From IMG/VR virus record IMGVR_UViG_2844443253_000004: a stretch of 60,550 bases of DNA; one strand, given 5' to 3'. The notes under the pieces are model-generated. The model made no database searches, had not been told where the DNA came from, and saw only the letters and a list, made by a program, of their open reading frames with translations. A program made the translations under genes and the position numbers. Numbering within the stretch: position 1 is the first letter of the stretch; the number at the start of each line of letters is the position of its first letter. Shown here piece after piece: positions 21,003 to 21,682 of the stretch. This DNA is from a virus. Its lineage: Duplodnaviria; Heunggongvirae; Uroviricota; Caudoviricetes.

Positions 21003-21615
21003 GCGAGATTTGAGACGAAGGTTGTTATTTGCACTGACACAATATTGTGTGGGAATGTCTGACTCCTTACCATCTCCTGTTCTGTGATGTTGTTTTGTTG
21101 CAGTTCCAGTGCTCTTTTTTCAGCACCAGAATGGTGCATTGTCGGTCAGGTTACGTAGTGAACCTCTGGCAGGGGACTGATAATGCATCATTCTGGTGTT
21201 GTAAATATCTCTTCGGACAACTTACAAAATATTCTAAGCAAACCCCGGGAACACACTCTTAACTGCCTTGGCTGGCGGTTTTTTGTACAGTGCTCGGTAT
21301 GTGTGAGCTGGAAATCAGATTTTGCATGGACTGGAATCATGCTGTTATTTAGGGGCGAAGAACTGGCTTTTTCTTCCGCCTTCTCACCAGTAACGATTAG
21401 AAAAATAATGAAATGCCCCCTCCGGGGAGGAGGACCGTAGAAAAAAGGACCCGCCAGCAAAAACATTGGGGATGAACAGCTTTCGCTACTCAGATTGCTG
21501 GCGGGTAAAGTTCCTCATGAATTAAGAATGCTACGCGATCTTTTTTAATGGAAATGAAAATTATTGTCAATTAGTCGTGCGTGTTTTTTCATACAATATT
21601 GGTAAAGGTGATTCA

Positions 21616-21647
21616 GGCCATCAGAGTTTTGCTGATGGCCTTTTTTC
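21616..21647 (+). terminator. rho-independent terminator upstream of truncated holin
   Basis: GGCCATCAG-agttttg-CTGATGGCC followed by TTTTTT. Confidence 0.7.
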
Positions 21648-21682
21648 TTTCCGATAGCACAGGTCTGTCGGGGGGGCGGGAT

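Follow-up and report, generated by a model that had tools for sequence, protein, structure and literature searches.

We analyzed a 680-bp interval (21003-21682) lying between a transfer RNA (tRNA) cassette and a truncated holin gene in a viral DNA of 60,550 nucleotides (Caudoviricetes; IMG/VR record IMGVR_UViG_2844443253_000004). This whole stretch is called the window below, and all coordinates refer to it. An earlier note, made from the sequence alone, had treated the interval as a cargo gap at the position that stx occupies in Shiga toxin (Stx) phages, and had suggested a deletion scar, a small RNA (sRNA) locus or a regulatory structure. The gene order given there is confirmed: a Q-like open reading frame (ORF) is followed by tRNAs, of which we find four at 20693-21002, and by a holin start at 21683. 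ARAGORN and Rfam identify the plus-strand tRNAs as Met/Ile2(CAU), Arg(UCU), Thr(UGU) and Gly(UCC), the first of which is named tRNA-Ile in the RefSeq annotation of the 99.7%-identical RMDEC465 locus. A promoter-like site detected by a promoter scan (20654-20683, plus strand; TTGCAG at 20655-20660 and TATTAT at 20678-20683, separated by 17 nt) stops about 10 nt 5′ of the first tRNA. It is identical to the corresponding site of a second such cassette in the window, and the same −35 and −10 hexamers with 17-nt spacing, but with diverged spacer sequence, are present in the tRNA promoters of UMNK88 and strain 504211. On the other side of the interval only a 5′ fragment of the holin gene is left (21683-21775, plus strand). 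Set against RMDEC465 and the full 71-aa copy (32577-32792), it is the beginning of a class II holin of the P21 type, whose dual-start motif reads MYQMEK, and it corresponds to positions 1-26 of the 64 in Pfam Phage_holin_2_1. An insertion sequence (IS) of the IS3 family at ~21773 cuts the gene after codon 30, and the IS end provides the stop codon. The upstream DUF1133/Q-like ORF (20084-20503) is without its N-terminus, lost to another insertion.

Two conserved non-coding modules placed end to end

The interval consists of two independently conserved non-coding modules placed end to end and contains no cargo remnant. In its entirety it is found at 99% identity or higher in nine complete genomes of Escherichia coli resembling enteroinvasive strains, where it is preceded by tRNA-Gly, leads up to an intact holin-RrrD-Rz cassette and bears no annotation. 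The tRNAs ahead of it in RMDEC465 are the same four as here. None of the phage records matches it at high identity. Taken separately, the two halves are distributed very differently. The left half, module A (21003-21290, plus strand), matches 238 of 5426 complete E. coli genomes at 68-78%, all of the matches being chromosomal, and is present on more than 120 IMG/VR contigs, whereas the right half (21302-21676) matches about 1450 of the same 5426 genomes at 85-88%. These differing distributions indicate that the interval is a mosaic with a joint at ~21290-21296, a feature that had not been listed before. As the earlier note had stated, the interval holds no convincing ORF: there are just frames of 61-92 codons, none of them longer and none conserved in relatives, and a Pfam search with the two longest returned no match. 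Nor were stxA, stxB or their remnants found in the interval, whether among its ORFs, in the Pfam search of the two longest or in the Stx phage records of the phage collection, to which there is no nucleotide match. UMNK88 likewise has a gene-free gap of 658 nt between tRNA-Gly and the holin gene.

Every homologue of module A that we examined lies directly 3′ of the tRNA-Gly that closes a prophage tRNA cassette, and its main hairpin starts 123-142 nt past the CCA end of that tRNA in 149 of the 169 instances collected from E. coli and IMG/VR. What follows the module varies: an essD-type holin, a two-holin cassette with an M15 peptidase, or TerB with DUF3927. Module A is on the same strand as the tRNAs, occupies the stretch from the last tRNA to a predicted terminator and is linked to the tRNA and not to the genes that follow, as expected of a tRNA-operon 3′ trailer; judged by this sequence context, it is the 3′ trailer of a tRNA unit with its own putative promoter. 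Some of the prophages with this trailer also carry toxin genes, for Stx2 or LT-II. One of them, the Stx2 prophage of STEC308 (extract L084 470-2700), has stx2B upstream of a methyltransferase pseudogene and Thr-Gly tRNAs, which are then followed by the hairpin-bearing trailer. Since stx is therefore not always located between the tRNAs and the holin gene S, the parallel drawn with the stx position is true only loosely.

Module B (21296-21682, plus strand) is a conserved non-coding holin leader that goes with one allele of the P21-type holin, MYQMEK. It always adjoins MYQMEK class II holins, except where lysis genes have been deleted: on plasmids with the serum-resistance gene iss and in pap-linked islands, the holin and lysozyme genes are missing from just past the terminator onward, but the module remains. 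These holin-less copies are joined to Rz fragments (extracts L008 3501-4150; L009 and L011 3501-4102). Module B was also found adjoining IS elements on plasmids and in pathogenicity islands. Its carriers in the scanned collections (IMG/VR and species-representative genomes) are only Escherichia and Shigella. Between the window and the PMV-1 type, module B is 87.7% identical, much the same as the 89.8% nucleotide identity of the holin gene. Upstream of module B, PMV-1-type loci have a sequence with a PasD-like beginning (GCATGGTGAATCC...; extract L002 4700-4975) and, on the minus strand, a PapR-like terminator behind a good promoter, TTGCAA-18-TATTAT, which would give an RNA of ~58 nt.

Structured elements and their surroundings

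The idea of a structured or regulatory RNA in the interval is borne out most strongly by an element that the earlier note had not listed, a long G·U-rich hairpin of ~33 bp in module A (P1; 21117-21205, plus strand), identified by folding, RNAalifold and a covariance model and the most stable structure in the interval. P1 folds at −48 kcal/mol (z-score, z, −7.75) on the plus strand, compared with −31 kcal/mol (z −3.4) on the minus strand. RNAalifold applied to 36 variants yields a consensus of 33 pairs (27 + 6), in which 98.0% of cells are standard pairs, versus 36-55% when the partners are slid by 1-3 columns. Six pairs are changed on both sides, and none of 500 shuffles reached the observed values (a statistic qualified below). 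In 82 unique trailers P1 is 98.4% paired, and over all predicted helices of these trailers G·U cells number 915 and A·C cells 32, an asymmetry that points to selection on the plus-strand RNA and not on a DNA palindrome. The covariance model scores 85.1 bits on the plus strand and 43 on the minus strand, with a single copy in the window. P1 is thus a plus-strand RNA hairpin under selection. In Rfam searches at the gathering threshold, the window has only tRNA and group II intron matches; when E-values up to 10 are admitted, IsrK gives a weak match that lies beyond the interval and scores 14.1 bits where the cutoff is 50, and P1 attracts noise from microRNA models. P1 is absent from Rfam families and from the literature we searched, and a full-text search with characteristic sequence strings retrieved no paper. 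As a family, therefore, the trailer hairpin appears to be undescribed, and its covariation is sufficient for proposing a new RNA family. An isolated phage, vB_EcoS-683R6, carries module A.

P1 is flanked by two smaller elements. The 5′ part of the trailer (21003-21116, plus strand) has a long-range helix P0 predicted by RNAalifold, in which GCACTG (21031-21036) pairs with CAGTGC (21107-21112). In the 82 unique trailers P0 is 97% paired, compared with 20-34% in slid controls, and one of the pairs flanking it switches between GC (47) and AU (20). P0 encloses small hairpins and is followed by a U-run (21113-21120) that forms the base of P1. A small hairpin overlapping that base, P2, is GGTG/CACC in 50 of 62 variants and GATG/CATC in 17 of 17; with 12 nt between them, its two sites may simply have been passed on together, and we did not rely on it. 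The trailer is closed by a small predicted intrinsic terminator, t1 (21261-21284, plus strand; a 7-bp stem with T6 at 21279-21284, found by scan), also new relative to the earlier note. The stem of t1 is kept, and its loops differ, in the trailer classes of the window, UMNK88 and 504211.

In module B, the perfect inverted repeat with a 34-nt loop is there as described before, although its arms measure 12 bp (21449-21460/21495-21506) and not 11. By our estimate, 680 bp of sequence would contain by chance ~0.004 perfect 12-bp repeats with both arms inside 100 nt. This hairpin, its conserved loop and the invariant A6 that precedes it (21441-21446) make up the element I4 (21441-21506, assigned to no strand); the A6 is equivalent to a T6 after the hairpin on the minus strand. 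Folded as minus-strand RNA the repeat has z −3.9, and as plus-strand RNA z −3.1. No other block of module B is as conserved as I4 with its loop and A6, where a fraction of 0.9-0.93 of the columns does not vary among four variant classes. Covariation analysis, which the earlier note had recommended for the hairpins, is uninformative for I4: the variants of I4, drawn from Escherichia and Shigella, are too few, its arms are nearly invariant and the single changes point to opposite strands.

The strong terminator previously placed near 21616-21647 is real and conserved. This element, t2 (21615-21650, plus strand; by scan and folding), has a 10-bp stem with six GC pairs (21615-21624/21632-21641), a 7-nt loop and T6 (T-run 21641-21646), folds at −22 kcal/mol (z −4.1) and lies 36 nt 5′ of the holin start codon. 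Its stem is intact in holin-linked variants and mismatched in the plasmid and pathogenicity-island copies that are without holin and lysozyme. Both t1 and t2 have the GC-rich stem-loop and U-tract of intrinsic terminators, as predicted from sequence. The 3′ arm and U-tract of t2 (21632-21656) are 72% complementary to the holin start region 21686-21710, which includes both start codons, and an occluding structure like lambda sdi is a possible outcome.

Several further observations concern the surroundings of the interval. Its counterpart in the second cassette (32285-32576) is unrelated in sequence and has the 11-bp repeat reported earlier (32291-32301/32326-32336) and, besides it, a perfect 14-bp repeat (32344-32357/32403-32416). 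This second interval is 97.6% identical to the isolated phages phi467, vB_EcoS-689R5, PhiR47_1 and vB_EcoM-606R7, and partly similar to HK639. The two holin copies (21683-21700 versus 32577-32594) differ only in the first six codons, MYQMEK versus MKSMDK, and are the same in protein at residues 7-30, which places the mosaic joint of the two leader types inside the dual-start motif. The tRNA-Thr of the first cassette (20850-20923) is 74 nt long by ARAGORN, compared with 76 nt in the second (32131-32206). One base is visibly absent from its 3′ acceptor strand (AGTCG-CACCA versus AGTCGGCACCA) and it scores 55.9 bits against 69.8, so that the first copy is probably a damaged one. A tR′-like terminator 3′ of the Q-like gene (20581-20606) has one G fewer than in RMDEC465 (GCGG versus GCGGG), which reduces its stem to 4 bp. 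The group II intron 3′ domain (RF00029) occurs in two copies (17960-19573, plus strand, and 25534-25620, minus strand), one of them after a reverse-transcriptase ORF of 507 aa, and both within IS-related sequence adjoining the truncated Q-like gene. A Toprim primase-like ORF at 23221-25080, its 3′ end removed by an insertion, has Hint and LAGLIDADG domains and hence an intein.

What the interval may do

The explanation that we favor, and hold to be somewhat better than even, takes the interval for the untranslated spacer within a lambdoid late operon that has since decayed, a spacer composed of a tRNA trailer and a holin leader and equipped with a processing hairpin and insulating terminators. 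The tRNA unit would begin at the promoter at 20655-20683, comprise the four tRNAs and a trailer that folds into P0 and P1, and end at t1. RNase III of E. coli cleaves double-stranded RNA of about 20 bp or more. P1 has a mostly continuous double-stranded region of such length and is therefore a candidate RNase III-type processing or stability element; when Q-modified polymerase reads through, cleavage at P1 would cut the tRNA precursor apart from the late mRNA that follows it. As Q-modified polymerase reads through downstream terminators, the Q-antiterminated enzyme would also pass t2. Transcription that is not antiterminated, coming from the tRNA promoter or any upstream moron, would be halted there, and t2 thus probably shields the lysis genes and would keep them silent in the lysogen. 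For I4 there are two possibilities, a structural part of the leader RNA or a terminator at which a short antisense RNA would end. The analysis shows how the modules are conserved and placed, on which strand P1 is selected, and that coding constraint and cargo remnants are absent; RNase III cleavage, insulation by terminators and the role of I4 are what we infer, the first two from the established behavior of RNase III and Q-modified polymerase. Most of the interval is ordinary late-operon architecture. If the hairpin is indeed a processing site and the terminators are insulators, prophage tRNAs could be expressed in lysogens without leaking into the lysis genes, and late transcripts would be split into tRNA and mRNA parts.

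Several points weigh against this explanation. With both the Q-like gene and the holin gene truncated, the late operon is dead in this genome. The terminator t1 is weak (−12.1 kcal/mol, z −1.96). No recognizable terminator was found by an admittedly imperfect scan between tRNA-Gly and the holin gene of the second cassette, which implies that an insulating terminator is not universal. I4 is kept in copies without a holin and so may have a role unrelated to lysis. As for P1, two of its three sequence collections were made with patterns derived from the hairpin, which limits the variation that can be seen, although homologues derived by BLAST show the same pairing pattern as those collected by pattern. 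Many P1 sequences are moreover related to each other, so that the statistics from the 500 shuffles overstate independence.

The alternative that survives best, though we regard it as considerably less probable than not, is that the interval encodes one or more trans-acting sRNAs, as do other moron-site loci of lambdoid prophages. Such an RNA could take two forms. On one hand, the tRNA trailer could be processed to a stable regulator or sponge, as in 3′ETS-leuZ (the 3′ external transcribed spacer of a tRNA operon; see below). On the other hand, a minus-strand RNA of ~95 nt could start near 21535 and end at I4 and its T6 (21506 to 21441), being antisense to the holin leader in a PasA-like manner. 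Validated sRNAs do map to the same zone in related prophages (PMC4104026; bioRxiv 10.64898/2026.05.13.724894), and the PapR-like and PasD-like sequences of PMV-1-type loci are just upstream of module B. The high conservation of I4, its loop and the flanking A6/T6 would fit the second form, as would the minus-strand fold, in which a free 5′ region is followed by a hairpin and a U-tail. A candidate minus-strand promoter can be read from the sequence at 21542-21570 (TTGACA at 21570-21565, 17 nt, TAAAAA at 21547-21542), and both hexamers and their spacing are kept in 6 of 6 aligned variants. However, the −10 element is without the conserved final T and the site was not called by the promoter scan, and consensus folding of module B favors the plus strand (−73.7 versus −52.3), on which the A6 of I4 has another possible partner, a U-rich run further upstream. 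The interval showed no similarity to PasA, PasC, PasD or PapR, and no Rfam family, AgvB, AsxR, STnc100 and Esr41 included, matches it. We treat an antisense RNA of ~95 nt made from this promoter, I4 and T6 as speculative. A plus-strand promoter for a short RNA ending at t2 was also considered and rejected, the candidates having 22-nt spacing or failing across indels.

A more elaborate role for P1, which we think unlikely, is that of a sib-like retroregulatory switch tied to the phage tRNA cassette, or of a precursor that is cut into small targeting RNAs. As a switch, constitutive transcripts from the tRNA promoter would end at the U-run 21113-21120 after P0, whereas Q-antiterminated transcripts would draw this U-run into the base of P1 and so form an RNase III site solely on read-through RNA. 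The effect of cleavage would be either to make tRNA supply independent of lysis mRNA or to determine how stable that mRNA is. The interior of P0, ~80 nt, is atypical of a terminator, and P0 with its U-run is kept as a speculative reading only. If either version were true, P1 would represent a new family of phage-encoded structured RNA.

That the interval encodes small proteins seems to us quite improbable. The candidates are an 85-aa ORF (21183-21440) and homologues of WP_000904532 (86 aa, across P1) and WP_000502162 (63 aa, in module B). RefSeq does annotate such ORFs in some genomes, the 3′ arm of P1 contains a conserved ATG with an upstream G-rich stretch, and 54 of 70 variants have no stop codon in the 25 or more codons that precede this ATG in frame. 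Variation in P1, however, argues against coding. Differences in loop length are not multiples of three, and the U-run between the sole upstream start codon and the hairpin arm ranges from T6 to T8. Peptides starting at the P1 ATG diverge past residue 8 and are 16 to more than 41 aa long, and the variable positions are non-synonymous. The long ORF annotated across P1 in one genome is interrupted in the version of the window, and the 63-aa ORF annotated in PMV-1 has an ATG in just 5 of 31 variants and runs through t2. Together with the failure of the two longest ORFs of the interval to match Pfam, this makes coding unlikely as far as sequence can tell.

A deletion scar, or decayed cargo such as stx lost between the tRNAs and the holin gene, deserves very little credence. 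Many lambdoid phages do carry cargo between Q and S, and this prophage is heavily decayed, with insertions truncating both the Q-like gene and the holin gene. Nevertheless, the same 680 bp precede intact lysis cassettes in relatives, both halves are conserved modules with fixed neighbors in hundreds of genomes, the UMNK88 gap is just as gene-free, and there was no nucleotide match to Stx phages and no Pfam match for the two longest ORFs; this suggestion of the earlier note is not supported. It is no more credible that the hairpins act as DNA, be it as a recombination site, the ends of a miniature transposable element or a cruciform: phage mosaic joints often fall in such spacers and module B adjoins IS elements on plasmids and in pathogenicity islands, but the excess of G·U over A·C is expected only under selection on plus-strand RNA, P1 is single-copy in the window and at a fixed distance from tRNA-Gly, and no flanking direct repeats were seen.

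Comparison with known systems

The zone between Q and S is a known hot-spot of sRNAs (PMC4104026, PMC8550237, PMC4546395, PMC7547250, bioRxiv 10.64898/2026.05.13.724894). AgvB and AsxR are convergent sRNAs at the moron site (PMC4104026), StxS belongs to the same zone (PMC7547250), and PasA, PasC and PasD1 directly adjoin holin-lysozyme operons (bioRxiv 10.64898/2026.05.13.724894). The interval resembles these loci in lying between Q/pR′ and the holin gene and in having hairpin-plus-U-tail elements on both strands. Like pasA, pasC and pasD1, module B directly abuts the holin, ending at its start codon in a lambdoid prophage. The interval differs from AgvB/AsxR, Pas and PapR in that it shares with them neither sequence nor covariance-model similarity. 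Membership in the Pas group was defined by Zhu et al. as a blastn match with more than 75% query coverage. We extracted PasA, PasC, PasD1 and PasD2 from E2348/69 by the coordinates of Table S6; the interval shares with PasA, PasC and PasD just chance words of 10-14 nt, and local alignment scores are within the shuffled range. The Rfam models of prophage sRNAs (AgvB RF02702, AsxR RF02703, STnc100 RF02076, Esr41 RF02676 and IsrK RF01394) score below the gathering threshold. For PapR of UTI89, for which primers are given in S3 Table of PMC4546395, the primers of the 5′ region and terminator have no match in the window, and the terminator 20-mer matches only PMV-1-type loci, outside module B. An sRNA candidate beside a pseudo-tRNA-Gly in prophage PP10 of enteropathogenic E. 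coli is unrelated to the interval. IpeX of DLP12 was rejected as well: the interval has no homology to the region between nmpC and essD in K-12, and IpeX itself is located at the other end of nmpC.

If the trailer were released as a stable RNA, its closest analog would be 3′ETS-leuZ, which is derived from the glyW-cysT-leuZ tRNA operon and is about 50 nt long. In both cases a tRNA cassette that has a promoter to itself is followed, on the same strand, by an RNA segment reaching from the last tRNA to an intrinsic terminator, and tRNA processing would release module A as well. Unlike 3′ETS-leuZ, module A is ~280 nt long, phage-borne and dominated by the 33-bp hairpin, and we know of no sponge or target pairing for it.

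With respect to the holin leader, lambdoid terminators subject to Q read-through and lambda sdi, the upstream RNA structure that sets the ratio of the two lambda S start codons, offer the nearest parallels. Like them, t2 lies within a late operon just before a dual-start holin and is partly complementary to its start region. The other holin leader in the window, however, is without an evident terminator, and an sdi-like role of t2 is only putative.

RNase III processing hairpins are well known in polycistronic phage transcripts, examples being the T7 R sites, the lambda N-leader and lambda sib/tI. P1 has no sequence relationship to any of these and its cleavage is only predicted, and we found no description of an RNase III hairpin placed after a tRNA cassette in the literature searched. 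Like them, however, it is a long, mostly perfect helix between functional units of a long phage transcript, and, as in lambda sib, the U-run after P0 would join the base of P1 only if transcription continues.

Non-coding RNAs of the Q-to-S region, such as StxS, AsxR, AgvB, PasA-D and PapR, already regulate virulence and host metabolism. To this region our analysis adds two widespread and unannotated non-coding modules, of which the holin leader occurs in roughly one in four complete E. coli genomes and has also been retained next to pap operons and, on plasmids, next to the serum-resistance gene iss.

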